Source: a virus. Taken from it: a stretch of 64,000 bases of DNA. The notes below the pieces were generated by a model. It saw only the letters and a list, made by a program, of their open reading frames with translations. It did no database searches and was not told the origin of the DNA. Below, piece after piece: positions 3,801 through 22,864 of the stretch (position 1 is its first letter; each line of letters opens with the position of its first letter). Location of the stretch: IMG/VR virus record IMGVR_UViG_3300043607_000039, positions 1 to 64,000 of that record; one strand, written 5' to 3'. Both the position numbers and the translations under genes were made by a program.

Positions 3801-3933
3801 GTGGGATGGCCTCTCGGAAAAGTGCGTTTGTTCAGCACACAGCTGCAACATTTTCCGGGCGGCCCACAGCTACAGCCCCGACTCGATTGAACGCAGTGTA
3901 GATCTACACCATTTGAAGAAGCAAGTAACCTCG

Positions 3934-4083
3934 TTACTTCTTCTTCACGTCGATACGGCCGCCATGACGAGTAACCGCAATATCGGCCGCCACCTTGGAA
4001 GAGAATTCCTCAGTCTGGCCATTGGCCTTAGTGACCACATAGCTCTCGGCGTGGTTCCCGCCGCTCTTACCGCAGTTACACAT
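3934..4083 (-). CDS. Small Cys-tipped protein (MCNCGK..., 49 aa)
   Basis: Manual translation; AAGGGGA RBS; directly upstream of the capsid gene. Confidence 0.65.
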   Translation of the reverse strand: MCNCGKSGGNHAESYVVTKANGQTEEFSSKVAADIAVTRHGGRIDVKKK

Positions 4084-4954: not shown

Positions 4955-7900
4955 TCATCCTCGGGCCCTGGCAATGTCGGCACGCTGCTGCTCAGCAAGC
5001 TCAGGGAACAGCTTGTCGAGCACTGCCGCCCGCTCCGGGAACAGGTCACGGAAGTACACGTCGCCGCTCCAGCCGCTGCCATTGGTGAGGGTGCCGGTGC
5101 CAACGACGCCCAACATGTACAGCCGGATGGACTCCGCGTAGTCCTCCTGAGGATCGGATGTTGCGTACGGCGTGACCCCGTAGGTGAAGTTTCCCCGCGG
5201 GAATGTGGACTCGAACTCGGAAGCCTTCGTCGGCTTGAAGTCGGTAATCCGCTCATTTGGGTTAGGACTCTTGGTCGCGGCCTTGACCCAGGCGGCACTC
5301 TGGGAGCCGTAGACCGGCGATGTGGTGTCGACGTTGTGGCCGAATTCATGGTTGAGGTCGCCGTCGAGGTGATCTCCACTTCCTTCTCCGTCATGCCAGA
5401 CGATCGTGTTACCGAACGAGGCTGACGCCGCAGTGCGCAGTGGCTCCTGGTCGGGGCCCAGCAGGCCCCACTTCTCTTGCCATTGCCCCTCACGAGGGTG
5501 GCCGCCCTGCACCATCACGTAGGAACGCTGGTACCGGCTGGCCCCTGGCGGCAAGTTATTGGCGTGCGCGATAAGCCTGTTCACGCCGACAGCTGCGCGC
5601 TGCCTCTCCTCTGGGGTGTCTCCGTGCTCCACGACGTAGACGACACCGTTGCGGCGCCAGGCAGTGCCGGACCCAACCTTGTATCCAACCGAGAGGGTCA
5701 GGTCACGGACGTTGGTGCCCTGGGGCCAGGTGTCCTCTTCCAGGATGCTGTCCACGGTGCGGTCGCCGCCGAGCCGGCCGGTGATGGCTCGACTACTGCT
5801 GGCTGGCACTGCGGACGAGGCCGGTCGGGCAATCCGCTCCAACAGTGACGGACGCCGGGGGGCGGCGATCTTGGGCCGGTCGCCTGTTCCGAGCTGCTTC
5901 TCTCCCGACCACGACGAGCCGTTCATGATGGAGCGGCCCAGTTCCCCCTGGTCCGAGATCTCCTTCGGTGTGGGCCAGTCCTTCATGTCTTGCTCCACGA
6001 ACCGGTCCAACCATCCGGACAGGACTTCGCGCTCCTCGGGGGTAGCCCGACTGAACGCTTGGCCAATGCGTGATGGCACGTCGCCAGCAGCGCCACGTCG
6101 GTCGGTCTGCCAGCGGAAGTCTCGACGAGCTGAGGCAAGCCCACCGTTGAAGGCAGGGCTGATGGTGGCCCGGGTGAAGCCGAGGTCGGCTAGCCTCCGG
6201 TCCTGCTGGTCATTGAACCGGGTACTCAGACCCTGCTGTTGCTGGGCCTTTTCGAGGGCGAACATGTCATTGTGGACGGTTCCCGTAGCTGGGTAGAGCA
6301 CGCGCCGGAAACCACCAACGATCCCCCCGTCCCCGTCCTTAACATCGCCTTCGACTCGAATGACTGGGTTACCGTCAATGTCCTTGTAGACGAACGATCG
6401 CTCAGGGTCCACGCGGAAGGACTTGCCGTCGTCGTCCACGTCGAAGGCGCTTGTAATGGCCTGACGCTGAGCCTCCGGCATGTCGCTCAGGTACTTCTGT
6501 CCATCGTCATCGAAGCCATTCGCTGCCAGCTCGCGCACGGTCGCCTTGTCGGTCAGCTTGACCTGTGGCCCCTCGGGCTCACGTAGGCGAGGAGACTCCG
6601 TCGAGCGACCATCAGGCTTGGATGCCCGGATGCTGTCCAAGACGTCAGTGAACAGCTTCCTGATGCGGGTCTTTGCCTCAACGAATTCCTGGTACTCGTC
6701 GGACTGGTCGTCGCTGAATGGCGACTTGTATCGACCCGTCGCCGGGTCAATGACGCCATTGTTCTTCCAGGCATCCGTCATCCGGTTCATTGTGTACTCG
6801 ACGCTGTCAAAGTCCGTGGTCGCTTCGCCCGCACGAATCCGGTCCCGGATGCCTTCCAACACGTCCTTGGGCGATCCGCGACCACCCATGCGGTCGACGT
6901 ACATCGCCGCCGCCGGCCCATCGAGCCCGTCGCCAACACGCAGAGCCTCGTCGATGGCGCTTTCGATTACCTGACGCTGCCCGGCCTTGGTCCGGACGTT
7001 GGGCTTCTTCGCGGGGGCGGCCTTCTTGGCTGCCGGCGTCGGTGCTGATACGCCGTCTGACGGAGTCGCCCGGTCCACGGCAGTGTCGTGGTCCACCTCT
7101 CGCCGTCCGAGCCGCTCACGCCAGTACTCGTTGCGCTGACCGGGAGTCAAGGTACGAAGCTCAGCCTTCTGGTCCCGGTTCAGGGCCTTGGTGAGCTTGG
7201 CCTTCTTCTCCGCATCCACGCCCTCCAGCCGTGCACGAGCAGCTGCTACAGCCGGACCCTCAGGGACTCGGGGCGCCCGTGTAGTCGCCTTAGCTGGTGC
7301 AGCCTTTTTCGCAGCCCGAGCACCTGGGGCACCCGGTGCGTCACTGGCCCGCTTGATCAAAGCCTCAAGGCGGCCATGAGCGGCGTCGTACCAGGCCTCA
7401 CGGTCCAGGCGCTGGAACTGAGGCTTCATAGCCTCCAGCTCCTTGCGGACGTCGGTCAGCTCGGCAGTGGTGAACTCGTTGCGGTCTAACCACTGGCCAC
7501 CCGTGATCAGGGTGACCCCCATCGTGTCCTTGGTTTCCAGTGAACGGTAAGGATAGGCCGCGCGGAATGGGTCATTGAAGTGGTTGCCGTCCGGCAGGAT
7601 CTCGCCGTCAGGGCCGTACTTGGGCTCGTCATCGAAGGCCAGGCTGTTGTCGAAGCCAACCGGCCTACCATCAACGATCATCCAGTTGTTGTTGTGACGG
7701 TCGCTGTTGCCAGCGATGGCGTCGAGGATCGCCATACGGCGCCCCTCGGGGGTGTGGACCGCGGCGTCAATCTCCTCTGGCGTGTGCTTCTCGGCCTGCG
7801 TTCCCTGGATCTCGTCCATGAACACAGTTCGGTCAGTGGGCCGGTAGACCGCGGCCTGTGGGGCACCAGTTCGGCGGCCCAGCTCGGAGGTGAGCTGCTC

Positions 7901-10900
7901 GCCGTCGGCCTGCTGCTCGCCCGACATGAACCAGTCGCTGGACATCCGCTTACGGATGATCTTTTTGCCGTCGGGGCCTTCGACTCTGGCGACCTGGCCC
8001 ATGCTGCCGGTGGAGATGTAGCTCCGGTCCGTGAGGCCTGCGTCGAAGGCGTCCTTCAGTGCCTGGACCTCGGGGTCCAGGTCGACGTGGTGATCTCCCA
8101 CGGGTCCGTCGCCCACGATCATGTCAATGAGCTGAGGCTTAGTGATCGAGGACGGCTTCTTCATCCCCGGTGGCAGCTCGTCGAGCAGCTCCCTCATGGT
8201 CTTGGACTCAAGCTGCTCGCGTCGCTCCTGGCCAAAGGGCTCTGCGATACCGAGACGACGCCGGATATCCTTCATCACCTTGTTGCGGAGGACGTCGAAC
8301 TTGTCCCCCTTGGTGTTCTCTAGATGCAGGGCGTCAGCAACGTCTCGCAGCTCATTGGGGCGCAGCTTTCGGCTCAGCGTGTCCGCCCGGTCCAGACCGC
8401 GAGGTGTCAGGTAGGCCGCCCGATCGGAGGAATTGAAGTCGCGCAGCAGCTCGAAGCCAGCGTGGTAGTTGTCGCCAATGACGCTGCGACGTGTCTCGAC
8501 GTCGGCAAACGGCTTGTCTGGAGTCGGTGTCGGACGTGACGAAAGGTCACCATCGCCGCCGCCACGAACCGACCGGAGCACTGGCCGCTGGAGCGTGACC
8601 ACTGTGGACTCAGTGGCTTCCGGCGTGACGTCCTTGTTCTCCTTGAAGGTGCTCTCGTACCACTCGCGGAGCTGCTTGCGGGGCCGCTCATCCGGACCGA
8701 CTCCGGCTCCGGCGAGCGCGGCGTCGGTCCGCTTGTAGGCGTCGGGCACCTTGTGGTGCTGGTCCTCGGTCCGGACCGAACGGTCCAGTTCGGCCAGGCT
8801 GTTGGACGGCACTCCGCGGCCCAGCTTGCTCTCGGCACCCAGGAAAATGCTCGTGGGTACGCCGTCGCCGGAGTTCCACTTCTCCGGGTCGGCCACCACG
8901 CCAGCCCTCGGAGCCGGGGCGGCCGGCGCCTTGTCGTTGAAGTACATCCCGGGGGTGTGGATCTCGGCCAGTTCGCCCGGCTGCACGCTGGCGCCGTCGA
9001 GCAGGTCGTGCTTGTCCGGGTCATAGGTGACCTGGTCCCCGTCGTTGCCGTCGACCGTGATGCCACGGCTCTCCAGGTGCTTACGCAGCCGGGCCTGGAA
9101 CTTGGCGGCCGTGTCGTTGTCGCTGACCTTCAGCGTCTTGCGCAGGTCCTCGTAGCCCTGGGTGTTGTGGTCGGACTTGTTGTCGATGTCTCCTACGGGC
9201 GTCTTCTTGAGCCGGTCGGCCACGGCCGTGCGGAACTCGGCCTGGCTCCGGTCGTTGCGCCGGGCCGCGATGATCTGCTCTAGCTCGGAGGCGAGCTGGG
9301 CAGTTCCACCGGCACGCTGCCGGCGGGCGCCGGCCTCCCGGGCCTGGAGCCGCTTGCGGGCGTTCTCCGTGGCGTCCGGGCTCGGCTGAGTCAGTTGGGA
9401 CTCTGAGGGGACGTCGGCCTTCTCGACCGGGCGCGGTGGAAGCTCGCGGTCACCCTTGCGGGGCTCCCCGGGACGCAGAGTCCCCTCGCGAACGACCACA
9501 GGACCGTCGCCATCCTCGACCCTGTCAGCCAGGGCCCGAATGCGGTCGGTCTCCAGATCGGCTGCCCTGCGACGTTCCACGTCACTGGCGTCGGTGGAGT
9601 AGCCCTCAGTCTGGACGGCGCCCGCCCGACGTCGGATCTGGATAGCGGCGGCCCGCCGTGAAATACGACCCTCGTCGGCTGCCTTTGCCAACTCCTCGGG
9701 TGGCGCGCTGTACGCCTCCTTCTGCGTCAGCTGCTTGGGGGCTGCTGCCTTCTTGGTGGGCGCGGCTTTCTTGACCGGTGCCGCTGAAGGCGCACTAGTC
9801 TCACCATCCCGACCTAGTACCCGATAGGGGATTCCGGCGTCGTCGAGCTTCTTCGCGATTGCCGGGGACGGCTGCTCAGGGAACACGACCTCTGCGATGT
9901 CGTCCTTGGTGACGCCGCCATGGATCTGTGCCTCGACGTAATGTGACCGCGTCCAGTCTGGGCTGTCCATTGCGTCGAGCTTGTTGATGCCGAGCGAGTC
10001 GGCTGAAGGGTTGTCCACTGGAGACGGTCGCACGAAGGGAAGCTCGTCGAGACTGTCGCCCACCGAGGCCGTCGTCCGAGACCGAACGTCTGGCTTCAGG
10101 ATGACCTGCACCCGTCCATACGGACTTAGTGAATCTTCCTGACCCTCGCGCTGCGAGATGCCCGAGATCTTCCGTCCCCCTGGTAGCGCCGGCTCGACGC
10201 CGTTGACGGCCACGTAGCCGTACACCGGCCGCTTGTCCGGTGCTGTGTCGACCGGAGTACCCAGGACGTGTTCACCAAGACGACGACGCTCAGGGCTGGA
10301 GTCCAGACCTGGAGCCCGACGTGCGCCCCGGTCGAACTGCGTCTTGAAGCGACCGTTCGACAGGATGTCGTCCAGGGCGTCCTCGTCCCGCACCCGGACT
10401 GCAATGGGCTTGTCGGCGAACTTCTCCTTCAGTCGTGCTGCCACCTTCGCCCGGTACGCGGCCGGCGTATCGCCGGCTGCCTTGGCATCCTTGTCGAGAC
10501 GGCGACGGATCTGTGTCTCCTGGGCGACGTGCTCAACGAACGCCGGTTCACGCTTGTGAACGTCGTCCAGCCACTCGGCGTCCTCCTTGCCCAGGTTGCC
10601 CGACGTTGCGACCCGTCCGTGCCGATCCTGCACTGTGGCGTAGATCTGCGGGTCCTGGCGGATGAGCCGGCGAACGCGGGCCTGGTCCTCGCGACTCAGG
10701 TCGGTAGATGGACCGCCGGCTGGGACTGCACGAACTGCTTGCGGGGCCGCAGGTGCAGCGGCCTTCATTGGAGCAGCGGGTGCTCCGCCCTCCGGCTCAC
10801 GGATGCCCTTGATGATCCGGTCGATCCGCGTGTCCCGGTCCATGCTGCTTAGGACTGGGATACTGGCCGCATCGGCGATGTCCTCCAGCTTCTGGTCAGA

Positions 10901-13900
10901 CAGCCGGTCCAGGAACTGCTTAGCGTCATCAGGGGAGTCGGCCGTGTAGACCCGGTCCACCTGGTCCAGGTTGGCGGGACGTCCATGGGCGGCCGACCAC
11001 TTGAATCGCACGTTGTCCCGAGCCTTGCCCCAGTTGGACTTGGGGTTCGCAACAGTAGCTGGCGGCTCGAACCGAGGTGTGCTCGAACCGCTGCCGTCCT
11101 TCGGCAGTGCGTTGCGACCAATGCCTGCGAACTCTGGCTTTGCTGGTACTTCGCCGGCCTGGTGCTGGCGGTACCTGTCCATACGCCAGGTACGGATTTC
11201 CTTGCTGAGGGCGTCGTTGTTGCCCGCCTCAGGGTCGAGCTTCCACATGCTGTAGGCGCCGTCGCGGCTCTCGTGGTACCGGCGCAGGATCTTGCGGATC
11301 TTGTCACTGGCGCGCGGCTCACCGTCGGAGATCTCCCGGAACGCCTCCGCCAACTGCTCCACGGCCGACTTGCGCTCATCACCGTCGTTGACCGACTCGG
11401 GGCGACGAGCCAACGGGATCCGGTTCAGATCCTCGATCAGCTTCCGGGCGAGCGGAGGTGTGTCCTCGGGCAGGTCCGGCACCGGCCGCTCAGGGGCATC
11501 CATCTTGGACAGAGCCTCGTCGTACAGCTCCCGGATCGCCGGGTCTTGCTCCTCCAGCCGCATCAGGCGCAGTTCGTCAACAGCCCTCTGGCTGGCCTCA
11601 GGGTCGCGTGAGTTGGGGCCGCTGTAGTCAGCCCGCATGTCCATGACCTTGTTGGCGGAGCCGTTGCGGCCCCTGTGGGCCAACCGCTGAGCCAGCTTCA
11701 TGGCCGGGGAGTCCCCGTGCATGATGCCGCCATCGCCGGTGGAGTCACGGGTGAGCTTCACGCTGTCCCGGGTGAGCTTCTCGCTTTCGTCAACCGGTCG
11801 ACCAGCTAGCCGACGGAGGTCCTCAGCGTCCTGCGCCTCAAGCCGGTCCATCTCGGCTTGGACGTCCGCCTCTTCCAGCATTCCATCGCCGTTACCGAGC
11901 AGGTACTGGCGAGCACGCTGAGTTTCCGGTGCCTGGAGGTCGGCAGCAGTCGCCTTCTTGGCTGCGGCCCGAGTGATCTTGACTGGACGCTCAGGGGCAG
12001 CAGGTGTCGCCTTCGGCCGCTCGAAGTTGAGGGTACGGAGGATGGTGTCGTTGAGGTCCTCGTCCTTGACCGCAGTCATGTTGCTCATACCCAGGCGCGA
12101 GCCGACACGACGCCTCTGCTCGGGAGTGAGGCCGTCGAGCCACCCCGGAATGCGGTATCCAGTGCCAGCTTGGCCACTCCTACTGATGCGCTCAGCAACG
12201 GCATCAGCGTCACGGTCGGCCTTGTTGCGAGGCTTAGGAACGGCCTCGCTGATCCTCTTCCGTGTCTTTTCCTGGAGACCGGCCGCCGACTTGAGCTTTA
12301 GTCCAGCCTCGTTGACGTGGGGCGTTTCCCGGTCGTAGCCAGCCTGACCCTCGGCCTCAAATGCGCGACCCCGACGGGCGATGGCTGCGTCCAGGGCTTC
12401 GCGTAGTTCACTGACGCTCTGTCCAGGCGGGGGCTCGTAGCCTCGTTGCCCCGGCTCGAACTCGCCCATGGTCGTGGTGTCACGACCCTCCATCCAGTCC
12501 TTGGCCTGCTGGAGAGTCGGGAATGAGGCCTTGCCGCCCATGTCAGCCTTGTAGGCCTTGTAGGAGTGCTTGGGGTTGTCCTCATCCGGTGGGAACTCGG
12601 TAATGTAGCCCAGATCCGAATTCCGATAGAACGTGATGTCCTTGATGAACCCCTCGCCGGGCTCAACTGACCATTCAACTTCCTTGGCGGCCGGAGCCGC
12701 CTTCTTGGCACGACCAGTTGCCTTGGTTGGCGGGGCGCTGATCCGCTGAGAGGGCTTGCGCAGGACCTTGAGCTTGTCCCGCAGTGCGGCCCACCGGCTG
12801 CCCTCGGCAACCAGTGCAGCCTCTTCACGGTCGCGCTGGGCCCAGTACTCAGGCGGCTGTGGAACGAGCCGACTGTCGCGGTCCTCGCCGAGCTGCCGCA
12901 GGATCATGGCCCGGTAGAACGGGCTCGCGGCACCGTTGACGTACTGATCAATGTCGCGAGCGATGTCGCGAGGGCTGACGCCCTCATCGAGTTGCTTCTG
13001 GTAACCCTCCAGTCGAGCCTTGTCCCGAGGCGTGAAGTCCTTCTGGCCATCGGTCATCTCGTCCAGGTCGAAGGTCCTAATAGGAGCTTCCACGGCCGGC
13101 AGCGGTGTGGCCTTCTTGGCTGGCACTTCCTTCTGCGGCAGGACGCGGGCCAACTGGCCCTCGGTACTGGTGTCCGCCTTCTTGGCCGCCGCAATGTCCC
13201 GACGAGCCTGGGCCACGGTCCGCTTGTCGCCAGGCGCCTCGGCAATGATCTTGCCGCGGTTCAAGATGACATACTGGTCCTTGGCGCCCTCCGCCGGGCA
13301 ACCAACACACTGGCTGCCGCGAGGCACGTGGATGGCGTCGTAGCCACGAGCCATGGCGTAGCGGCCGATGTCGTTACCCAGCAGCTGCATCTCTGGACTG
13401 TCTTCATCCAGCGTTGCGACGTAGGCGTTGTGCTCCTCGATCAGGTCCGGCAGCTCGGCGATCTTGGCGTCCTTCGCCAGACCGTATCGGGCCACTGCGC
13501 CCTCGGTCAGGTCGCTGTACCCGGTGGCGTGCTGCTTGTTCTTCGTCATGTAGGTGCCGTTGCCGAAGGAGCCGTTACCCATGTGGTAGCGGCCCTCACG
13601 GAACTCGTCATGCACCTCAGAGGCGGGCTTGCCTTTGAACTGCTCACCAAAGCCGCCATCGCGGCCGGCGGTGTCGATTCCCCGGTAGAGGATCGTGCCC
13701 ATGTCCTTGCGACGGGCCTCGAACTCGTCCCGGCTGACTACCTCCGGTAGAGCGTCGAATCCTTGACGCTCGGCCAGCTTCTCGCCCAGCAGGTCCCCAC
13801 CGCGGTCGGTCTCAAGCTCCTTCGTGAGGCCACTACCCCAGCCGGCGCGGCGACGGAAGTGTGGATCGGCGATGGCTGAGTCCACGATGGAGCGAGCGGT

Positions 13901-16900
13901 ACCCGCGCCCTCGGTGAGGTCCTTTGTCTCCACCTTTTTGGCCCGCAGGTCAGCCTTACGGGCGGCGTCAGCGTCGGCAAAGTGCTGAATGATCGCGGCG
14001 TGGATCGCCTTCTTGTCCGACTGGGCCAGTCCCTTGATCCCGAGGCCATTGCGCCCGGCCAGACTGCGCCAGGTCGCTACCGGAAGGTCGCGGTACTGGG
14101 CCCGGCCAGTTTGGGCCTGCTTCAGCTGCTTCTCGACGTTGTCCAGGACCCGCTGCCGAGCCGCCGGACCGTGAGCGTCGACCAGAGCCTGCCGAAGGTT
14201 GGTCGGGTTGACGATGCCGTCGACAACAACGGCAACACTGCGATTCTGGGCCTCGATCTCAGTCCGGTTCTTGATGCGGTCGGCGTCCTGCTTCGCGTGG
14301 AGCCGATCCATGCGGGCCTTCTGGGCCGGGATGGCACGAACTAGGGCCGCCTTGCCGTCGTCGGTCAGGATTGACTCGCGCTTGCCGCCACGCACCCGCG
14401 TCTTGACCAGACCGAGCTTCCGGAGCTGAGGTGGAATCGGGTCTGCATCCCGTAGTACCTCGCCACCGTCAGGGTTTTCCTGGTGGTTGCGCATGAGCCA
14501 GTGCTCGTCCTTCATGGACAAGCCTGGCGTGCTGGGAACGAAGTCCCTTTTGGCCTGAGACTGGACGGCGGGCGCTGCCTTCTTGGCCGCCGCCCGAGTC
14601 ACCTTGGTCGGAGTCGGGGCCTCAGTTTCGCCACGGTCATGCTTGGCGAGGGCCTCTTCCAGATCCTTCCGGGTCATCCGGCTGCGGCCAGCGATCCCGG
14701 CCTTCGACGCCCGGTCCCGAAGCTCGGCCAGTGGGGTCTGCTTCGCTGCTGCGGGAGCAGTCTTCTTCGCTACCCGTGCTTCGTCCCGCTCCAGGAGCGC
14801 GGTGTCGCGTGCCTTGAGTCGGTCCCGCTCCCATTTGTCGATCTCGGCCTTGCGGCCCTCGTACAGGCTCTGCCAGCCCTGGTACTTGGTGTCCTTGCCG
14901 CCGGGGCCAAAGATCCAGCCACCCACTCTGCCCTTGTAGTCGTGCTCAGCACCCCAGGCCTTGGCCCGAGCGATCGGGTCCTTGATGGGGCCACGCGGGA
15001 TCCGTGCAGCAGCTGGTGCCGCGACCTCCGGCTCCTCGACCGGAGCGAAGCCGTTGTTGATTTTCTCCTTGATCTGATCCACGTTGGACCGGTCCTGGCC
15101 ACGGACACCCAGGTCCCGCGCCAGTTCCCGGGCCTCAGACTGGGACAGCTCCAACGAGTCCAGGTAGTCCTGGCGCTCCTTGGTGGTCTTGCGCTCCAGT
15201 AGTGCCTTGCGAGCACGGGTCGGGATGACGTGACCAGCGACTGCCCGGTCCGGGTGCTTGGGCGTGAAGTGGCGCACGATTTTGGCCTGGACACCGGCCT
15301 CGTCGTCGCGGCCGGCGCTGACGATTCCCAGCTGCTTGGCCAGGACGCGCCACTGCGTCTTGTTCATGGGGCCCAGGTCGTCAAGGACCTTTTGGCGGGC
15401 CTCAGGAGTGGTAGCTGCGCTCAGGTCCTTGCGGATCTGGGCCGGGTTCTTTGGCCGAGTGACCCGACGTGCCCGTGGAGCGGGACCAGCAGGCGCCGCT
15501 TCCTCTCCCCCTTCACCCTTAGACATGCGGATGACGTCGCCACGACCCAGGGCGTCGATGGGCTTGCCCTGACGGTCCAGCAGCGTGCGGCCGACAACCT
15601 CGCCAACAGTGTGCTGTTCCCGGTCTTCGCCCATGACCACATCGCCAGGGCGGATGTCCCGGCGAGACACAACGTCCGGACCGGTCTCCAGCTCGTCGGC
15701 CAACTGGCGCGACTCAGGGGTGTCCAACCCCCGTAGCTGCTGAACAGCCGCAGCCTTGGTGATCTTCTTGGCGCTTAGGTCATTGAGTACGGTGTCGTTT
15801 TCGTTGAGCTGTGCGGCCGGGGCACGGGCAGGGGCGGCCTTCTTGGCCGAGGTGCGACCCTCCCGCTCCATGATGAAGGTCTGCTGGCTCGGCAGACCTA
15901 TCCCGCCGACCGCGTTGTTGGCATTATCGACCCGAACCTCGTTGCCGTCGTCATCATGACCAACAACAACCTTGAGCCGGTTACCAACCTGCTCGACCCG
16001 GTCAACGGTGATGGGCTTACTGCCACCCTGCCTGACTGCCGGCCGCCAGCGTCCATCCTCGGCTGGGGCGACAAGAACCCGGTCACCCTTGAGTAGCTTC
16101 CCGTTCGGGATCTTGCCATTGTCTCGGACTCGGCCCTCACGAGAAGGCGCTGCCACAGTTGGGGCCGCCGCCTTGGCTGCCCGCAGGCGTGGAGCCTCGA
16201 CACCTTCACCACCCGCCGCGGTGCGGGCCTCCAGTCGACGCAGCAGTGAAGCCTTGTAGTCCTCGTCGGTCAGTCCCATGGCGCCCGGGACCTTGATGGA
16301 GGCGCTGTCCTCCAGCTCCTTGCGGTCGGTCGGCAGTCCCAGAGCCTTGAGCCGGTCGTCCACTTCCGCGGCCGTACGCCGCGGGGCCGCGGCCTCGGTT
16401 AGCGCCTCGCCGAGATTGGCCTTTTTAGCTGGCGCCGCCTTCTTGGCTCCCTTGGTCGCCTTAGTCGCCTTGGCCGGAGCTGCCTTGGCTGGAGCCGGGC
16501 GACCGGCATCGCGGGCACGGATCTTGTCGGCCAGCTTCTGAAGCTGGTCGATCCGATTCTTCTCCCGGTCGTGAGTGCGAGCCTTGCCGCGCCAGTAGCT
16601 TTCGGGAAGGTCGACCCCATCCCGGCCCCAGTCTCCATTGAGGATGGTGTTCTGGGTCCGCATGTCCCCGACGAAACGCTCCAGCATGTCGGCAACCTGC
16701 GTCGGCGACGATCCTGTGTTCAGTCGGGCCTGGGCCACGTCGGAGTACGCGGCCAGGTCGGCCATGTTGATGCGCCCGTCGCGAGCTAACTGCCGAACGT
16801 CCACATGGTCCGGACCGCCAGGACCGAAGCGCTCGTTGGCCTCGCTGTCCTTACGTAGACCCTTGGCCTCGCGGGTCATGGTGCGCAGCTGCCGACGTTC

Positions 16901-19900
16901 GGCTCGCTTGGCCTGATCGTCTACATCATGAAGGGCGATGTAGCGCATCAGGTCGGTGAGCTTCTCGTCCTGGTCCTTACCTTCGATCTGGATACCCAGG
17001 GTGTCGGCCGCCTTGCGCAGGTTCTCCGGCGCCAGGGCATCGCGCTGGTCATCGGTGAGCTTGTCTTGGGAGACCTTCTTCGGCGGGGCCGCCTTCAGGG
17101 CCTTGGCTGCTGCCCGCTTGATGATGGGACGCTGCGGACGAGGCGCTTCGGAAGTTTCTGGAGCCCGATCCCGGTCATGGACCGTGCCCGACACCTTGAC
17201 CCGCTCGATGGCCCGGTACATCCCGGCTACATCGTTGATCATTCGCTTGCGCTGGGCGGCCTCAGCCGGAGTCAGGTCCTTCTCCCGCTGACCGGTCAGG
17301 TCGCGATAGTCGGCTTCCTTGCGACGACGGCTGATCCGGGCACGAAGGTGCTGGAGCGCGTCGGACTTGGACACCTCGCCGTCGCCAACGGCCTGCACCA
17401 GCTGGTCAGGGGTCAGCCTGGTGATACCTTCCCGGTCGAGCTGGGGGACGGTCACCTCAGGAGCGGCGGCCGCGGCCTTAGCTGGGCGCAGACGTGGGGC
17501 GTCCTCCGCCAGCTCACGTTCGAAGCCGCCGACCTCCATGCGTCGGAGGAACTCGGCCTTGTACTGATCGCTGGTCATCCGGGATTCGCCCGGGATCTTG
17601 CCCGAGGCGATGCCCTTCAGTGCGGCACGTGAGGTTGGTAGACCTAGAGCCTTGAGCCGGTTGTTGACGTCAACCGGAGACCCGGCCTCAACGGAGCCCT
17701 CACTGCGACGGGTAACGATCTGCTGCTTCAGTGCTTCCTTGTTGAATCGGCGCGGACTCTGGACACCCTCCTTTTGAGCAGCATCCAGCAGTTGGGCGTA
17801 GGTCTTTCCTTCCAGGTCCGCGTCACGGTCCGATGTGGAGGGAGCCGCTGCCTTTGCTGCCTTAGCCACCTTGGCAGGTGCTGCTGCCTTGGCCACCTTG
17901 GCAGGTACCTTGACGCCGCCCTCAGGCTCCAGGATGAAGGTCTGAGAGGCGCTCGGGTGCAGCTCGACCTGGTCACCGTCATCGTTCCTGAGGGTCAGGG
18001 CAACAGCCCGGGGCCGGCTGCTGACGCCTTGGCCAACGACCTCGAACGGGGTGACGTTGGTTTTGCGTGTGGTCGGGCGCCACTTTCCATCGGCACCCTT
18101 CTCCAGCAGGACCCGAACGCCAGGCTGTAGTCGACGGGCGGTGAGCTTGCCCTCGGCGGTGCCGGCCGCCTTCTCGACCGCGGGTGCAGCCTTCTTGGCT
18201 ACGGCAGCCGGCTTTGGAGCCGGTGTCTCAGGGAACCCCTTCTTGGCCTCGGCCTCCGCGGCCTTGCGAGCAGCGCCAGGCGTGGGGTAGGCACCACCCA
18301 CCGGCTCGCTCAGTGTGCTCTTCCGATCGGTCCGGACGACCTGGAAGCCTGTCTGTCCTGGCCGCCTGCGGATCTCGTACTTGACGTCAGGGTCGTTAGT
18401 GTCGACCGCGATCTTGCCGGCCGAAATCGGCGACAGGAACTCGGCCATCGCGTCACGCCAAGCGGCGTGGGTGGTGCGACTCGGCTCCTCGGCCACGATC
18501 TCGGCGACTCGTGCCCGGATCAGTTTCTGCGCTGGCTCCGGGAAGTCCTCGAACAGCTTGTTGTCATTGCGGGTGGAGGGCCGTTGCCCCACTGCACGTG
18601 CTGCCTTGACTGGTGCTGCCTTAGCCGCCTTGGCTGGCGCAGCCTTCTTGGCCGCAGGTGCTGACTCGTCACCCAGCCACACTGCGGTGTTGGGGAAGCC
18701 GGCAAGCCAAGAGCCATCGTCACGAGTGATCTTGATACGGTTGCCGTCGCGCTCGACCTTGGTGACCTTGCGCGGGATCCCGAGTTTGGACTTGTCGGAG
18801 CCGGAGCCTCCGCGGACGACGTCGCCGACCTCCACGTTGGTCATGCTCTTGCGCTGGGTGCCGTTCGCCAACGGCGGTAGGAGCTTGGCAGCTGGAGCAG
18901 CCGCGCTGATCTTCTTGACCGGGGCAGCCTTGGCGGGAGCAGCCTTCTTGACCGCGGGTGGCCTACGACCCATGGCGATGTAGACCTGATCGATGTCCTT
19001 CTTTTGCTCAAGCGGGCTCAGCTCAGCGAACGGCTTGTCCAGCTCTCCGCCCTTGACCCAGTCCTCTTCGCCATGCCGCGACAGCCACGCGGCGTGGACT
19101 GCCTCACCCACCTCCAGGCGGGTCTTCTCGTCGGTCAGGTCGACCGTGCCGCCGTGCTTCTCCAGAATGTCCTCAACGACCTTGGCCGCGTCCCGGTTCT
19201 CTTGCTTCCAGTCATCGGGTAGCTCTGCGTAGGGCGTGTTGTAGATGTCGACCTGATCGGTGCCGTGCGCCTCAATCCACGCCTTGTCCGTCGTGGGCTT
19301 GAGTCGCTCCGGCGGACCTTCGCGGCCTTCCTTGCCGGCGGCGCGCTCCTCCATCCACTGCTGCTCGAACGTCTTACGCCAGCCCTCTTGAAGCCGGGCC
19401 GCTTTCGTCTCGACGCGACGTGCACGGGCACGTTCAGCTGGAGTCGACCTCGAAGCGACAGCCTTGGCGGGAGCGGCCTTCTTGGCTGGAGTCTCCGGTG
19501 TGGGCTCCCTAACCGCAGGCGCTTCAGTTGCGGCTGGGGTGGCCTTAGCTGGGGTGGCCTTCTTTGTGCCGCCGGGTGGTGCAACGCGCCAGGGGATTCC
19601 AGCCTTCTCCAGCGCGGCAATCGTGGCCGGTTCAGGCTCGCGAGGGAACAGGACCTCTTCGATGTCATCGTTGCTGACGCCATCGTGGATCTGTGCCTCA
19701 ACGTAGGTCAATTGCTGGAACTGTGGGTCACCAAGGTCGTTGTACTTGGCCGCCGCCGGCTGAGCCGCACGGTAGTCGGGATTGTCGATCGGCATGGGGG
19801 TGAGTTCCTTGCGCCGATCCAGTGAGTCACCAGCGGAAACCGTCGTACGTGGACGGACGCTGTCCTTGAGGACAACCCGGATGTCGCCGTACTGGTCCAG

Positions 19901-22612
19901 CTTCCCTTCGCTGTGCTCACCGTCTAGTCCGCGCGGTGCCACATATCCATAGATAGGCCTGCGTTCAGCAGGAAGGTCCTTGGGGAGGCCAAACGCCATT
20001 TCTTCGAAGTCTGCACGCAGGGCCTTGTCGACGTATCCGCCGTCACTTGTTCCAGTCTCGTGCTGAGTCTTCATGCGACCGCTGGCGAGAATGTCCCGAA
20101 GGCTTGACTCACTGCTGCGGCGAACGACGATCGGCTTGCCTGGGGCCGTAGCTCGGCGAATGGCCTTTGTGGCCTTCTCCTGCATCTCGGGCGTCGCGCC
20201 CGCGTACTGGTCGACCCACGTCTTCCGGTCGTTAACTTGTTCCTTCACCAGGTGGTTGTAAATTCCCCGGTGCTCCTCGAAGAACTTCTTCAGTTCAGGA
20301 ACCCGACCAAAGAGCAATTGGGCATGCAGGTTGTCGTCGAACTCGTCGCCAATAATCACCGGCGGCCGTTCAATGCGGATCAGTTCACGCATCTTGTCGA
20401 TCTCGGCCTGGGGCACGCCCTGCTCGGCTGCGATCCTGTCAAGATCGAAGGCGGGTGCAGTGCCCGCCTTACGTGGCGCCGGAGCCGCCTTGGCCGCCTT
20501 CGCCGGCTCGGGTGCGGGAGCCTTCTCCGCGGCCGGTAGGGACTTCGTGGGCGTCTTCTTCGGCGACTTGACCGGGGTGGGCTTCTGGGGGCCCGCCTCT
20601 GCCAACTCGTCCGCGACGCCGTCAAGTTCGTCAGCCTCGCTCAGGCTAATGTCACGCAGCTCGGTCTCGCTGCGATCTCCCTGATCGTCCAGGTCCCCCA
20701 GTGCCAGGCCGTTTTCGCGTAGGTCCTTCGCCCGGACGCGGAGCCGGTCGATGACAGCGTCACGATCCTTACCGGCCGACAGGTCCCGCTTGGCTCCGGC
20801 AATCGCCTCGTCGCCGGCCACAGTGCTGGTCCGGGCACCGCCGAGGGTGTCCAGGTCGACCCGGCGCTGCTCCTCGCGCTCCTTGCTCTGCGCGATCATG
20901 CGCCGTTCGACGTCGGCGTCTGGTGCCGCAGGAGCTTCAGCTGGGGCAGTCTTCTTGGCTGCGGCCCTGGTCTCCAGGCGCTCACGGGCGACAGCTACTT
21001 CCGGTGCCTCGGGAGCGGCAGCCTTCTTGGCTGGCGCGGCCTTGGCCGCCTTCGCTGGAGCTGGGGCCTCAGGAGCCTCGGCGGGAGTCGCCTTGGCGGG
21101 CGCGGCCTTGGCTGCCTTCTTCGCTGCCTTCTTGGCGGGAGCTGGCGCCTCTGGGGCGCCTCCCTCCGCCTCCTGCTTAATCTGTCGCGCCTGCGACTGG
21201 ATCCGGGTCTCGTCGTCGTTGCGCGGGTAGCCCGGTTCCTTGCTCAGTTCCGCATCTCGCCGGACGACCGCCTTCTTCTGGACATCGGTCATGTCGGCAA
21301 TGGAGTCAGGTGCGCGCTTGACAGCCCGCTTCTTTGGAGTCGGGGCCGCAGCAGCAGGAGTTGTCCCGGCACCAGGCTGCTGGTCCATGAGCTGCTTGAT
21401 CAGCTGCTGGTTCAGCTTGATCTGCTCCAATTGCGACTTGGTCAGTTGCTCCTGGGCGCGCATGACGCGCTCCTGCTGCCGGTCAACGATGGCCTGCTGG
21501 GCGGCAACCCGCTTCTGCTCCTGCTCAAGTCGAGCCTCTTCTGGGCTCAGGACCTGCTTGGACGGGCGAGGTGTGATCTTCTCCCGGGGGGCGATTTCCT
21601 CGCCGGGCTGCACGACCTTGCCCGCGCCGAGAGGGACCTCTCCCCCGGACTCCTCGATCGCCTTGGCTGGGCTCGGGCCAGGTGGGCCGGCAGGCGCAAC
21701 AGGAGCTGGCGTATGAGCCGGAAGTCCCTGCTCGCCAGGGGCTGGCGTACCCGACGGGGGCAGCGGCTTCGGGATCGGCTGCCCGTCAGCGTCCAAGCCC
21801 CGCTTGGCCAGCTCCTCGGGAGTGGCCTCAATGGCCGGAGACTTCTCGCTCTCGGGAAGTTCGGCGCCCAGGCTCCGGGGAGCAACACCACTACCCTGCC
21901 TTGGCATGGCCGTGGCGTAGATGTAGGTACCGCCGTGCCCGTCCTTCTCCACCTTCATGATCTGAAGGGGCTGATCCTTGTCCAGGATGACCGACGTGAA
22001 GCCATCGCCAACAACGACGGCGTCAGTGCCGCGAGGGGCCAGGATCGACCAGGTGACATGGGGACCTGTGGTCTGGCGGGGTGAGCCGAGGTTGGTGGCC
22101 GAGAACGCTTTGTTGCTGACGAGCTTGCCGGTCCACTCCTCGATCTCGTCCATGCGCTCAGGAGGTAGGCCAAACTGCTGACCGTCGCCAACCCAGGTGA
22201 GGAGCATGTCCGCCGGCAGCGGCTCCATCATCGCGCTGATGTCGTTGATCTCGTCAGCGGGACCTTCGACCTTGCCCTTGGCGCCCTTGTCCTTGGGGTC
22301 ATAGCCGGCCCACATGGACTGGGTGATGCTGTCGTAGCCCTCAGGCGTGTAGAACTTTGTGATCGACTCGTTCTGCCGCTGCGTACGGGGCTTTGTCTTT
22401 ACCGCCCGCAGGTAATTGCCGGCGTGCTTATCGGACCTGAACTCAGCGGCATCGAAATGCTTCAGAATTCGGTCGACGATACCCATAGCGCGAGCACCAA
22501 GGCGCCAGCTATTCCGGAACCGACCGTGGCTGTCCCTTGGGTGCAGCTCGGCTTTCCAGTTCGCTACGTCGACTGCAAAGTCCGACGAACTGTCCCACGG
22601 GTCGACGGCCAC
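4955..22612 (-). CDS. Giant (5,885 aa) polyvalent protein: degenerate ART, 2x DUF3626-like, RyR-like, ART, GrpE-like, PI3/4K/HipA-like kinase, GNAT-like, zincin metallopeptidase
   Basis: HPRDSHGRF N-terminal motif; RPIYGY/YVEAQIH twice; LYRG..GNGTY..GYDAI..YVILN; DRHNNN..FDN; HEFGH..YATSDPQEDYAES; PAKKA linkers. Confidence 0.85.
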   Translation of the reverse strand: MAVDPWDSSSDFAVDVANWKAELHPRDSHGRFRNSWRLGARAMGIVDRILKHFDAAEFRSDKHAGNYLRAVKTKPRTQRQNESITKFYTPEGYDSITQSMWAGYDPKDKGAKGKVEGPADEINDISAMMEPLPADMLLTWVGDGQQFGLPPERMDEIEEWTGKLVSNKAFSATNLGSPRQTTGPHVTWSILAPRGTDAVVVGDGFTSVILDKDQPLQIMKVEKDGHGGTYIYATAMPRQGSGVAPRSLGAELPESEKSPAIEATPEELAKRGLDADGQPIPKPLPPSGTPAPGEQGLPAHTPAPVAPAGPPGPSPAKAIEESGGEVPLGAGKVVQPGEEIAPREKITPRPSKQVLSPEEARLEQEQKRVAAQQAIVDRQQERVMRAQEQLTKSQLEQIKLNQQLIKQLMDQQPGAGTTPAAAAPTPKKRAVKRAPDSIADMTDVQKKAVVRRDAELSKEPGYPRNDDETRIQSQARQIKQEAEGGAPEAPAPAKKAAKKAAKAAPAKATPAEAPEAPAPAKAAKAAPAKKAAAPEAPEVAVARERLETRAAAKKTAPAEAPAAPDADVERRMIAQSKEREEQRRVDLDTLGGARTSTVAGDEAIAGAKRDLSAGKDRDAVIDRLRVRAKDLRENGLALGDLDDQGDRSETELRDISLSEADELDGVADELAEAGPQKPTPVKSPKKTPTKSLPAAEKAPAPEPAKAAKAAPAPRKAGTAPAFDLDRIAAEQGVPQAEIDKMRELIRIERPPVIIGDEFDDNLHAQLLFGRVPELKKFFEEHRGIYNHLVKEQVNDRKTWVDQYAGATPEMQEKATKAIRRATAPGKPIVVRRSSESSLRDILASGRMKTQHETGTSDGGYVDKALRADFEEMAFGLPKDLPAERRPIYGYVAPRGLDGEHSEGKLDQYGDIRVVLKDSVRPRTTVSAGDSLDRRKELTPMPIDNPDYRAAQPAAAKYNDLGDPQFQQLTYVEAQIHDGVSNDDIEEVLFPREPEPATIAALEKAGIPWRVAPPGGTKKATPAKATPAATEAPAVREPTPETPAKKAAPAKAVASRSTPAERARARRVETKAARLQEGWRKTFEQQWMEERAAGKEGREGPPERLKPTTDKAWIEAHGTDQVDIYNTPYAELPDDWKQENRDAAKVVEDILEKHGGTVDLTDEKTRLEVGEAVHAAWLSRHGEEDWVKGGELDKPFAELSPLEQKKDIDQVYIAMGRRPPAVKKAAPAKAAPVKKISAAAPAAKLLPPLANGTQRKSMTNVEVGDVVRGGSGSDKSKLGIPRKVTKVERDGNRIKITRDDGSWLAGFPNTAVWLGDESAPAAKKAAPAKAAKAAPVKAARAVGQRPSTRNDNKLFEDFPEPAQKLIRARVAEIVAEEPSRTTHAAWRDAMAEFLSPISAGKIAVDTNDPDVKYEIRRRPGQTGFQVVRTDRKSTLSEPVGGAYPTPGAARKAAEAEAKKGFPETPAPKPAAVAKKAAPAVEKAAGTAEGKLTARRLQPGVRVLLEKGADGKWRPTTRKTNVTPFEVVGQGVSSRPRAVALTLRNDDGDQVELHPSASQTFILEPEGGVKVPAKVAKAAAPAKVAKAAKAAAPSTSDRDADLEGKTYAQLLDAAQKEGVQSPRRFNKEALKQQIVTRRSEGSVEAGSPVDVNNRLKALGLPTSRAALKGIASGKIPGESRMTSDQYKAEFLRRMEVGGFERELAEDAPRLRPAKAAAAAPEVTVPQLDREGITRLTPDQLVQAVGDGEVSKSDALQHLRARISRRRKEADYRDLTGQREKDLTPAEAAQRKRMINDVAGMYRAIERVKVSGTVHDRDRAPETSEAPRPQRPIIKRAAAKALKAAPPKKVSQDKLTDDQRDALAPENLRKAADTLGIQIEGKDQDEKLTDLMRYIALHDVDDQAKRAERRQLRTMTREAKGLRKDSEANERFGPGGPDHVDVRQLARDGRINMADLAAYSDVAQARLNTGSSPTQVADMLERFVGDMRTQNTILNGDWGRDGVDLPESYWRGKARTHDREKNRIDQLQKLADKIRARDAGRPAPAKAAPAKATKATKGAKKAAPAKKANLGEALTEAAAPRRTAAEVDDRLKALGLPTDRKELEDSASIKVPGAMGLTDEDYKASLLRRLEARTAAGGEGVEAPRLRAAKAAAPTVAAPSREGRVRDNGKIPNGKLLKGDRVLVAPAEDGRWRPAVRQGGSKPITVDRVEQVGNRLKVVVGHDDDGNEVRVDNANNAVGGIGLPSQQTFIMEREGRTSAKKAAPARAPAAQLNENDTVLNDLSAKKITKAAAVQQLRGLDTPESRQLADELETGPDVVSRRDIRPGDVVMGEDREQHTVGEVVGRTLLDRQGKPIDALGRGDVIRMSKGEGGEEAAPAGPAPRARRVTRPKNPAQIRKDLSAATTPEARQKVLDDLGPMNKTQWRVLAKQLGIVSAGRDDEAGVQAKIVRHFTPKHPDRAVAGHVIPTRARKALLERKTTKERQDYLDSLELSQSEARELARDLGVRGQDRSNVDQIKEKINNGFAPVEEPEVAAPAAARIPRGPIKDPIARAKAWGAEHDYKGRVGGWIFGPGGKDTKYQGWQSLYEGRKAEIDKWERDRLKARDTALLERDEARVAKKTAPAAAKQTPLAELRDRASKAGIAGRSRMTRKDLEEALAKHDRGETEAPTPTKVTRAAAKKAAPAVQSQAKRDFVPSTPGLSMKDEHWLMRNHQENPDGGEVLRDADPIPPQLRKLGLVKTRVRGGKRESILTDDGKAALVRAIPAQKARMDRLHAKQDADRIKNRTEIEAQNRSVAVVVDGIVNPTNLRQALVDAHGPAARQRVLDNVEKQLKQAQTGRAQYRDLPVATWRSLAGRNGLGIKGLAQSDKKAIHAAIIQHFADADAARKADLRAKKVETKDLTEGAGTARSIVDSAIADPHFRRRAGWGSGLTKELETDRGGDLLGEKLAERQGFDALPEVVSRDEFEARRKDMGTILYRGIDTAGRDGGFGEQFKGKPASEVHDEFREGRYHMGNGSFGNGTYMTKNKQHATGYSDLTEGAVARYGLAKDAKIAELPDLIEEHNAYVATLDEDSPEMQLLGNDIGRYAMARGYDAIHVPRGSQCVGCPAEGAKDQYVILNRGKIIAEAPGDKRTVAQARRDIAAAKKADTSTEGQLARVLPQKEVPAKKATPLPAVEAPIRTFDLDEMTDGQKDFTPRDKARLEGYQKQLDEGVSPRDIARDIDQYVNGAASPFYRAMILRQLGEDRDSRLVPQPPEYWAQRDREEAALVAEGSRWAALRDKLKVLRKPSQRISAPPTKATGRAKKAAPAAKEVEWSVEPGEGFIKDITFYRNSDLGYITEFPPDEDNPKHSYKAYKADMGGKASFPTLQQAKDWMEGRDTTTMGEFEPGQRGYEPPPGQSVSELREALDAAIARRGRAFEAEGQAGYDRETPHVNEAGLKLKSAAGLQEKTRKRISEAVPKPRNKADRDADAVAERISRSGQAGTGYRIPGWLDGLTPEQRRRVGSRLGMSNMTAVKDEDLNDTILRTLNFERPKATPAAPERPVKITRAAAKKATAADLQAPETQRARQYLLGNGDGMLEEADVQAEMDRLEAQDAEDLRRLAGRPVDESEKLTRDSVKLTRDSTGDGGIMHGDSPAMKLAQRLAHRGRNGSANKVMDMRADYSGPNSRDPEASQRAVDELRLMRLEEQDPAIRELYDEALSKMDAPERPVPDLPEDTPPLARKLIEDLNRIPLARRPESVNDGDERKSAVEQLAEAFREISDGEPRASDKIRKILRRYHESRDGAYSMWKLDPEAGNNDALSKEIRTWRMDRYRQHQAGEVPAKPEFAGIGRNALPKDGSGSSTPRFEPPATVANPKSNWGKARDNVRFKWSAAHGRPANLDQVDRVYTADSPDDAKQFLDRLSDQKLEDIADAASIPVLSSMDRDTRIDRIIKGIREPEGGAPAAPMKAAAPAAPQAVRAVPAGGPSTDLSREDQARVRRLIRQDPQIYATVQDRHGRVATSGNLGKEDAEWLDDVHKREPAFVEHVAQETQIRRRLDKDAKAAGDTPAAYRAKVAARLKEKFADKPIAVRVRDEDALDDILSNGRFKTQFDRGARRAPGLDSSPERRRLGEHVLGTPVDTAPDKRPVYGYVAVNGVEPALPGGRKISGISQREGQEDSLSPYGRVQVILKPDVRSRTTASVGDSLDELPFVRPSPVDNPSADSLGINKLDAMDSPDWTRSHYVEAQIHGGVTKDDIAEVVFPEQPSPAIAKKLDDAGIPYRVLGRDGETSAPSAAPVKKAAPTKKAAAPKQLTQKEAYSAPPEELAKAADEGRISRRAAAIQIRRRAGAVQTEGYSTDASDVERRRAADLETDRIRALADRVEDGDGPVVVREGTLRPGEPRKGDRELPPRPVEKADVPSESQLTQPSPDATENARKRLQAREAGARRQRAGGTAQLASELEQIIAARRNDRSQAEFRTAVADRLKKTPVGDIDNKSDHNTQGYEDLRKTLKVSDNDTAAKFQARLRKHLESRGITVDGNDGDQVTYDPDKHDLLDGASVQPGELAEIHTPGMYFNDKAPAAPAPRAGVVADPEKWNSGDGVPTSIFLGAESKLGRGVPSNSLAELDRSVRTEDQHHKVPDAYKRTDAALAGAGVGPDERPRKQLREWYESTFKENKDVTPEATESTVVTLQRPVLRSVRGGGDGDLSSRPTPTPDKPFADVETRRSVIGDNYHAGFELLRDFNSSDRAAYLTPRGLDRADTLSRKLRPNELRDVADALHLENTKGDKFDVLRNKVMKDIRRRLGIAEPFGQERREQLESKTMRELLDELPPGMKKPSSITKPQLIDMIVGDGPVGDHHVDLDPEVQALKDAFDAGLTDRSYISTGSMGQVARVEGPDGKKIIRKRMSSDWFMSGEQQADGEQLTSELGRRTGAPQAAVYRPTDRTVFMDEIQGTQAEKHTPEEIDAAVHTPEGRRMAILDAIAGNSDRHNNNWMIVDGRPVGFDNSLAFDDEPKYGPDGEILPDGNHFNDPFRAAYPYRSLETKDTMGVTLITGGQWLDRNEFTTAELTDVRKELEAMKPQFQRLDREAWYDAAHGRLEALIKRASDAPGAPGARAAKKAAPAKATTRAPRVPEGPAVAAARARLEGVDAEKKAKLTKALNRDQKAELRTLTPGQRNEYWRERLGRREVDHDTAVDRATPSDGVSAPTPAAKKAAPAKKPNVRTKAGQRQVIESAIDEALRVGDGLDGPAAAMYVDRMGGRGSPKDVLEGIRDRIRAGEATTDFDSVEYTMNRMTDAWKNNGVIDPATGRYKSPFSDDQSDEYQEFVEAKTRIRKLFTDVLDSIRASKPDGRSTESPRLREPEGPQVKLTDKATVRELAANGFDDDGQKYLSDMPEAQRQAITSAFDVDDDGKSFRVDPERSFVYKDIDGNPVIRVEGDVKDGDGGIVGGFRRVLYPATGTVHNDMFALEKAQQQQGLSTRFNDQQDRRLADLGFTRATISPAFNGGLASARRDFRWQTDRRGAAGDVPSRIGQAFSRATPEEREVLSGWLDRFVEQDMKDWPTPKEISDQGELGRSIMNGSSWSGEKQLGTGDRPKIAAPRRPSLLERIARPASSAVPASSSRAITGRLGGDRTVDSILEEDTWPQGTNVRDLTLSVGYKVGSGTAWRRNGVVYVVEHGDTPEERQRAAVGVNRLIAHANNLPPGASRYQRSYVMVQGGHPREGQWQEKWGLLGPDQEPLRTAASASFGNTIVWHDGEGSGDHLDGDLNHEFGHNVDTTSPVYGSQSAAWVKAATKSPNPNERITDFKPTKASEFESTFPRGNFTYGVTPYATSDPQEDYAESIRLYMLGVVGTGTLTNGSGWSGDVYFRDLFPERAAVLDKLFPELAEQQRADIARARG

Positions 22613-22630
22613 TTGTAGTGACCCCTTCTA

Positions 22631-22864
22631 CTATTCGCTGTTGTCAGTGACCTCTTTAAAGCGATTGCCATACTGGGCGTATAGCTCTCCCTCGGGAGTT
22701 ATTTTGATTCCGGTAGCGCTGCCAGGCACATAGTCCTCTTCGGTGTCGCCACCCATTAGAACAAACTGGGCCAGTGCAAAGCTACGTTCATCCAGCTCGC
22801 GCGCCTCATCGAGGCGCGCGAGCCGTGCCATACGGGCGGCAATTTCGCTGTCGGGAAGACTCAT
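22631..22864 (-). CDS. Small helical head-module protein (77 aa)
   Basis: Start moved to ATG 22864; EIAARMARL resembles ELAARLERW in the upstream gene product. Confidence 0.55.
   Translation of the reverse strand: MSLPDSEIAARMARLARLDEARELDERSFALAQFVLMGGDTEEDYVPGSATGIKITPEGELYAQYGNRFKEVTDNSE

Follow-up and report, generated by a model that had tools for sequence, protein, structure and literature searches.

Phage polyvalent proteins, as described by Iyer, Burroughs, Anand, de Souza, and Aravind (2017, J Bacteriol; PMC5512222), carry disparate effector domains in a single chain, and the same authors proposed that a zincin hub domain processes them. The ADP-ribosyltransferase (ART) Alt of phage T4 is packaged in the head and injected (PMC5512222), and Salmonella SopF, which carries DUF3626 (PMC6682159), reportedly ADP-ribosylates ATP6V0C (e.g., PMC10333799). 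Here, we describe an extreme member of this known class, encoded in a stretch of 64,000 nucleotides (the window; positions 1 to 64,000 of the IMG/VR record IMGVR_UViG_3300043607_000039). The source genome is a 93-kb record of an uncultured phage of actinobacteria, rated complete by CheckV, and the gene in question (4955-22612, minus strand; hereafter the giant gene, and its product the giant) takes up 19% of it. Based on its position in the head operon, on MuF and capsid-protease fusions of its modules elsewhere, on a fixed N-terminal header, and on the near absence of Cys, we consider it probable (roughly 0.6) that the giant is a polyvalent effector polyprotein made together with the head proteins and carried as head cargo. 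Its packaging, ejection, cleavage, and targets are what we infer.

Similarities to the polyvalent proteins (PMC5512222) include the combination of ART, kinase, GNAT, and Rho-N/SAP domains in one chain, a zincin hub with the lethal-factor-like fold that was found there by HHpred, a portal/head gene context, and a mosaic, fast-evolving architecture. Unlike those proteins, the giant has a VIP2/Alt-like ART as its constant N-terminal module, its kinase is PI3/4-kinase-like rather than of the truncated Ser/Thr/Tyr-kinase type, and its family spans 4,100-7,635 amino acids (aa) with ~20 blocks, as opposed to 2-15 domains. Cys avoidance, KKAAP linkers, and the LHPRD motif (see below) were not found by text searches in the part of PMC5512222 that these covered. 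As in T4 Alt, the header of the giant falls in the R-S-E Alt/VIP2 sequence family and is encoded among late genes. However, T4 Alt is a single enzyme of ~680 aa with an active site, whereas the corresponding module of the giant is without the Arg and Glu and has ~5,600 more residues behind it. The MuF-fused effectors and polymorphic toxins of (pro)phages combine an N-terminal PF04233 domain with a variable C-terminal toxin. Residues 2955-3128 have homologs at the C-terminal end of many MuF proteins, but MuF is here a separate 239-aa gene and the module lies mid-chain in another protein.

The giant gene and its relatives

The giant gene is a single stop-free frame of 17.6 kb and 5,885 codons whose predicted product has a mass of 643 kDa and an isoelectric point of 8.9. 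When the protease encoded upstream was used as a query, 29 related IMG/VR loci were recovered, most of which have a very long frame directly after the protease, and all nine long contigs that were fetched encode a protein of 4,124-6,686 aa between protease and capsid. The capsid proteins of these relatives are 77-84% identical to that of the source phage. A first reading made from the letters of the window (hereafter the sequence-only reading) had reported one 17.6-kb open reading frame (ORF) of 5,885 aa between the protease genes and the major capsid gene. Frame and placement were both confirmed by the uninterrupted frame, the relatives, and the substitution ratios given below; two intervening genes had gone unmentioned, i.e., a 77-aa ORF upstream and an HNH endonuclease downstream.

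The public gene call begins at Met43 (5,843 aa). Since the motif W-x-ELHPRD-xx-GRFR at residues 19-33, which is kept in every relative, lies upstream of Met43, and since the GTG at 22612 has AAGGGG 9 nt upstream of it, this GTG is, on sequence grounds, the likely true start.

The ratio of nonsynonymous to synonymous substitution rates (dN/dS) was 0.13-0.15 in three close pairs, in linkers and globular parts alike, a value taken from well-aligned blocks and biased low because the counted blocks were limited to at least 50% local identity. The DNA is 65% G+C and holds many spurious overlapping ORFs of 100-300 aa on both strands, which would fit a frame that is open by chance or was misannotated owing to the high G+C content. 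Nevertheless, a stop-free length of 17.6 kb, protein-level homologs in more than 100 clusters, a dN/dS of ~0.15, and two domains with a confident predicted fold already refute that explanation.

The chain consists of ~20 globular blocks separated by about 24-28 A/K/P-rich linkers. A single-sequence search of the whole protein against the PDB gave no match. Searched alone, the giant gave only sub-threshold Pfam matches; therefore, modules were assigned with the aid of orthologs, profiles, and two structure predictions, the latter made with AlphaFold2 (AF2). All lie on the minus strand:

22514-22558, minus strand: header motif W-x-ELHPRD-xx-GRFR, aa 19-33, invariant in all 10 giants
21905-22384, minus strand: VIP2/Alt-like ART fold, aa 77-236 (PF03496, through orthologs and the family profile)
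19583-20266, minus strand: DUF3626 (SopF-type) copy 1, aa 783-1010 (PF12294, phrog_8314)
18974-19402, minus strand: RyR-like module, aa 1071-1213 (PF02026, weak)
14648-14743, minus strand: Rho_N/SAP-type helix-extended-helix (HeH) motif, aa 2624-2655 (PF07498, E 3e-4, below cut-off)
13229-13750, minus strand: MuF-type ART-fold module, aa 2955-3128 (homologs, AF2 model)
9818-10543, minus strand: DUF3626 (SopF-type) copy 2, aa 4024-4265 (PF12294, phrog_8314)
7349-8080, minus strand: PI3/PI4-kinase-like kinase, aa 4845-5088 (PF00454, ortholog alignment)
5888-6361, minus strand: GNAT acetyltransferase-like module, aa 5418-5575 (through an ortholog)
4958-5797, minus strand: C-terminal zincin metallopeptidase, aa 5606-5885 (HEFGH at 5336-5350; AF2 fold)

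Header, cysteine avoidance and the case for head cargo

The header comprises the LHPRD motif and the ART fold that follows it. PF03496 (ADPrib_exo_Tox) reached only E 0.015, below cut-off, on this copy alone, and was matched by eight of nine orthologs (best 6.7e-6); against the PDB, the profile of the header family reached 9e-7 with Vip2 and about 1e-5 with CdtA/iota Ia. Of the catalytic R - S-x-S/T - E-x-E residues, the Arg is replaced by Trp and the Glu by Ser in this copy, and the catalytic Glu is absent from all nine close relatives (0/9). The header ART is therefore degenerate, and would be catalytically dead, in this lineage, whereas in the wider family Arg is kept in 107/145 and Glu in 75/145 representatives. 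The H/P/R/G/R/F residues of the motif, by comparison, are retained in about 127-136 of the 145 representatives. The kinship of the header with T4 Alt suggests that an Alt-like head cargo may have gained further modules, with the header keeping a non-catalytic role, probably in loading, in this lineage.

When the header profile was searched against 1.84 billion cluster representatives, 334 clusters passed E<=1e-10 and 119 of them E<=1e-30, and in nearly all of the 119 the header sits at the extreme N-terminus (residues ~14-270). Members are mostly 1,100-2,000 aa long, many of the shorter ones probably ending at contig ends, and the longest has 7,635 aa. The exceptional size claimed for the giant in the sequence-only reading therefore has to be qualified.

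Among its 5,885 residues, the giant has 2 Cys, which share a loop of the MuF-type ART-fold module, compared with a Cys content of 1.57% in ten neighbouring structural (head and tail) proteins (p about 1e-37). The giants of the relatives have 0-2 Cys each, and 111/115 header-family members longer than 1,000 aa are Cys-free. The linkers carry a net charge of +83 over 759 residues, as against -46 for the globular remainder, and they contain the motif [AV]KKA[AT]P (KKAAP) 13 times, compared with 0.02 expected from shuffles; every relative has 7-24 occurrences. When KKAAP was compared with zincin presence across 121 family members, the result was not discriminating, because most shorter members may end at contig ends.

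In the proposed mechanism, the constant header (LHPRD..GRF motif plus Alt/VIP2-like ART fold) would direct a few copies of the giant into the prohead, and the Cys-free chain with its flexible linkers would pass the tail unfolded, alongside the DNA. In the new host, the modules would modify host proteins or defences, possibly after being cut apart by the zincin. These modules would be supplied by a variable, recombining middle with two putative DUF3626 modules, the MuF-type ART fold, kinase, GNAT, RyR-like, and small HeH and beta modules, together with a dozen blocks of no known fold; the lethal-factor/PPEP-like zincin closes most full-length members. In a further and much less likely reading, KKAAP at module borders would be the cut site of the C-terminal zincin, the giant would be a self-processing ejected polyprotein, and cleavage would free a dozen or more effectors from one injected chain in the new host.

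Several points weigh against the head-cargo proposal. The giant is known from genes alone, from an uncultured phage, and tblastn against 50,697 cultured-phage records returned no comparable gene and no header match. No cargo for which passage through a siphovirus-type tail has been demonstrated comes near its 643 kDa. About half of the chain consists of blocks without an assigned fold. Of the four ART-fold modules, two are without the canonical catalytic residues; therefore, part of the giant may be non-enzymatic.

Size also speaks for a late cytoplasmic polyprotein that is never packaged and that acts in the producing cell, for example by switching off host processes or defences at a late stage of infection, or is released at lysis, as do the absence of any sequence feature that proves packaging and of a MuF, portal, or protease domain of the giant's own (Pfam found no PF04233 (MuF) domain in the polypeptide, MuF being a separate gene). 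However, the position within the head-morphogenesis block is conserved in every relative, and three of the modules are fused to head proteins elsewhere, i.e., the ART fold (to MuF), DUF3626 (in Tierra), and the GNAT-like module (in Jera). Moreover, family-wide Cys avoidance and an invariant header would be unexpected for an ordinary cytoplasmic enzyme, and we regard a cytoplasmic role as rather unlikely.

If packaged and ejected as head cargo, the giant would rank with the largest cargos known from virions, and would deliver ADP-ribosylation, phosphorylation, acetylation, and proteolysis before phage gene expression. The header, Cys avoidance, and linker motif could serve to find and test similar cargos in actinophages that have not been cultured, and the middle offers a collection of modules that are candidates for anti-defence or host takeover, about half of which have no known fold.

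Enzyme-like modules of the giant

The two DUF3626 copies are ~40% identical to each other. Copy 1 matched PF12294 at E 1.7e-5 (24.4 bits vs a cut-off of 27) and phrog_8314 at 3.5e-19; copy 2 matched them at 5e-4 (19.6 bits vs 27) and 5.8e-16, respectively. Both thus resemble SopF in their family matches but differ in scoring below the Pfam gathering threshold and in belonging to a phage protein of actinobacteria. Outside the header, tblastn matches in cultured phages were solely to the DUF3626 modules, plus one GNAT-like match. Copy 1 matched Mycobacterium phage Tierra gp9 and L5/D29 gp2, and the matches include records annotated DUF3626; Tierra gp9, in which DUF3626 is fused to the capsid protease, is annotated as 'capsid maturation protease and ADP-ribosyltransferase'.

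No Pfam match was obtained for the MuF-type ART-fold module in the giant. Its homologs are mostly the C-terminal domains of 500-600-aa PF04233 (MuF) fusion proteins, and its AF2 model had a predicted local distance difference test score (pLDDT) of 80. The top Foldseek matches of this model were all ARTs (PARP2, cholix, diphtheria toxin, exotoxin A), with modest scores (E about 1e-3, prob 0.99, template modelling score about 0.3), and VIA gave similarly modest values (Z 6.0-6.7, root-mean-square deviation 3.5-4.7 over 117-132 residues). Conserved residues are YRG (Arg), GNGTY (Tyr), and ILNR (Asn-Arg), with no conserved Glu or Asp. PF18760 (ART-PolyVal) was matched by 1/24 homologs (1.3e-4), and its set of His (strand 1), Tyr (strand 2), and Asp/Glu (strand 5) was not found. 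Residues 2955-3128, as modelled, therefore have an ART-like fold whose active site is neither R-S-E nor H-Y-[ED]. The best VIA match, chain 9k3a_B of the cyanophage A4 pre-ejectosome (Z 6.7), ties with toxin ARTs and was set aside as a lead only; the cyanophage A4 paper describes no ART in that chain (PMC12002296).

For the RyR-like module, PF02026 gave E 0.47 on this copy alone and matched 4/4 aligned homologs (best 0.0058). The top PDB matches of its profile were ryanodine-receptor repeat domains, at a non-significant E of 0.065-0.6, and ESM Atlas leads scored 0.81-0.82, so that its identity is weakly supported. The HeH motif at residues 2624-2655 is one of several similar short motifs, and PF07498 is on record for relatives.

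The kinase matched PF00454 (PI3_PI4_kinase) at 3.7e-5 (24.2 bits vs 27.1), as did five of seven orthologs (best 3e-8). Its Lys, Glu, D-R-x-x-x-N loop, and metal-binding Asp are invariant in seven orthologs, and its profile gave weak matches to type II PI4-kinases. The GNAT-like copy had no Pfam match of its own; an ortholog in relative G003, 45% identical (E 2e-44), matched PF00583 (Acetyltransf_1) at 1.9e-8 (35.1 bits vs a cut-off of 20.7). The acetyl-CoA motif Q/R-x-x-G-x-G/A reads Q-Q-Q-G-L-S here, with Q-x-x-G-x-S kept, and a homolog lies at the C-terminal end of the capsid maturation protease of Microbacterium phage Jera.

All 12 zincin copies, among them three in G004 and two in G005, have HExxH, a Glu farther downstream (E-D-F/Y-A-E), and a Tyr. 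The AF2 model (pLDDT 86; Foldseek E about 1e-3, prob 1.0) resembled M34-type zincins, with VIA Z scores over 165-209 residues of 10.4 for PPEP-3, 10.1 for lethal factor, and 9.7 for PPEP-2; at 10-17% identity and with an extra N-terminal beta-sheet subdomain in the giant, the likeness is one of fold only. A zincin is present in all 13 header-family members of at least 4,300 aa; of the 18 members that bear one, 14 have at most 40 aa between its end and the C-terminus.

Of nine domain calls in the sequence-only reading, seven hold by profile, ortholog, or fold: the degenerate ART at 21905-22360 (ortholog and profile matches, Arg and Glu lost), the DUF3626-like modules at 19580-20140 and 9815-10415, the ART at 13245-13800 (as a fold, at the modest scores above), the kinase at 7370-8030 (catalytic residues intact), the GNAT-like module at 5890-6370 (through the G003 ortholog), and the zincin with HEFGH at 5336-5350. 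The RyR-like module was correctly placed at 18975-19400 and is doubtful in identity. The GrpE-like module at 8940-9080 (aa 4511-4558) was rejected: the block is conserved in seven relatives and had no family match, the GrpE Pfam hitting one member of a 37-sequence set (E 0.043) and not this copy. Apart from this one, coordinates were within a few codons for all modules. The sequence-only reading took the giant for a capsid-internal cargo able to ADP-ribosylate, phosphorylate, acetylate, and cleave host targets at entry, an interpretation that is partly supported. The case for ADP-ribosylation is weaker than was proposed: the header fold has lost its catalytic Arg and Glu, the MuF-type fold has no conserved catalytic Glu or Asp, and the two DUF3626 modules alone remain plausible candidates for active ARTs.

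The block at residues 3565-3938 had no usable ESM Atlas match, and the profile designated A1 had no match in the PDB. A 67-aa module at residues 5119-5185 (7058-7258, minus strand) with the motif L-T/S-P-x-x-R-x-x-Y-W and no family match recurs at different positions in G001, G007, G008, and G009. It abuts the kinase here and lies on the kinase's other side in G007 and G008, and it was considered as a kinase 'plug' partner. Since it also occurs in the kinase-less G001 and G009, and four kinases are found without it, this pairing is unsupported.

Mosaicism and head-gene context

Between giants, no more than 20-45% of the residues are shared, with ~40% identity and with common modules at different positions and in different order, and the only parts found in all of them are the first ~375 residues and the zincin. 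For example, the 4,309-aa protein of a 118-kb relative (G006/P0007) has header, kinase, MuF-type ART fold, and zincin in common with the giant. However, the giant is 37% longer, its two DUF3626, RyR-like, and GNAT modules are absent from G006 by BLAST, and it lacks the Nudix domain recorded for the G006 protein. Internal duplications include the pair at residues 783-1010 and 4024-4265 and three pairs of small modules. Judging from these alignments, the middle of the giant is shuffled between phages with ~80%-identical capsids, an arms-race pattern. In the nearest cultured capsid relatives (phiAsp2, Gordonia phage Nubi, and cluster B mycobacteriophages), there are only small genes at the giant's position.

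Two further observations concern the lengths of the giants. The G007 giant is broken into 738 and 3,386 aa by a frame change (L039, ~2357-3004 of the oriented region); G008 is 98.7% identical to it over the first ~3 kb and has an unbroken frame, and the break may stem from misassembly or mark a gene that recently became a pseudogene. Among six complete relatives of 87-120 kb, the giant shortens as the genome lengthens, from 6,208 aa (87 kb) to 4,124 aa (120 kb; Spearman -1, n=6, post hoc, without phylogenetic correction); two relatives of 148-158 kb with giants of ~6,650 aa depart from this trend, which might reflect a fixed head volume shared between DNA and protein.

The head genes form a contiguous run on one strand, from portal through MuF, protease, giant, and HNH to major capsid, within which no promoter- or terminator-like sites were found above chance:

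25910-27841, minus strand: portal (PHROG/Pfam matches)
25198-25917, minus strand: MuF, 239 aa (PHROG/Pfam matches)
24006-25196, minus strand: middle piece (PHROG/Pfam matches)
22869-23987, minus strand: prohead protease (PHROG/Pfam matches)
22628-22864, minus strand: 77-aa ORF, same frame as the giant gene, closed by tandem TAG TAG
4955-22612, minus strand: giant gene (open frame; syntenic genes in nine relatives)
4076-4519, minus strand: HNH endonuclease (PF13392, 2e-12)
2127-3851, minus strand: major capsid protein (phrog_777, 1.6e-122)
308-1003, minus strand: major tail protein

PHROG/Pfam matches between protease and capsid revealed no scaffolding gene of its own. This would fit a mainly structural internal head protein, i.e., a DNA-organising core or scaffold whose enzyme-like domains are largely relics and in which the packaged DNA would be bound by HeH motifs and by the basic A/K/P linkers, which are H1/HupB-like. 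The charge contrast between linkers (+83) and globular parts (-46), the several Rho_N/SAP-like motifs, the two degenerate ART folds, and the post hoc fall in giant length with genome length (rho -1, six relatives up to 120 kb) are also consistent with such a role. However, a core should be conserved, whereas the middle is shuffled and only 20-45% of residues are common; the catalytic residues of kinase and zincin are invariant; and the ~235-aa N-terminal extension of the capsid protein could act as its own scaffold. On balance, we consider a mainly structural role improbable.

The HNH gene, between giant and capsid genes, is probably a homing-type insertion into the head operon. In relative G002 (L007 record), the major capsid gene (68554-70275) has one in-frame TAG. 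MuF, middle piece, and protease are three genes here, whereas cluster B mycobacteriophages encode all three as a single fusion (phrog_859) and some relatives have a middle-protease fusion of 779-796 aa.

Finally, the GTG of the giant gene comes five codons after the tandem TAG TAG of the 77-aa ORF. In G003, the homologous peptide runs into the giant in one frame without an intervening stop, and in G006 the homolog is separate and ends in TGA. The double TAG may be a guard against read-through or a route to a rare N-extended form of the giant. We give little credence to the joint reading in which KKAAP is the zincin cut site that releases the effectors and, in addition, an amber-suppressor tRNA of the phage reads through TAG-TAG at a low rate. 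Such read-through would yield a minor N-extended giant, as encoded outright in G003, that could possibly anchor the cargo in the head.

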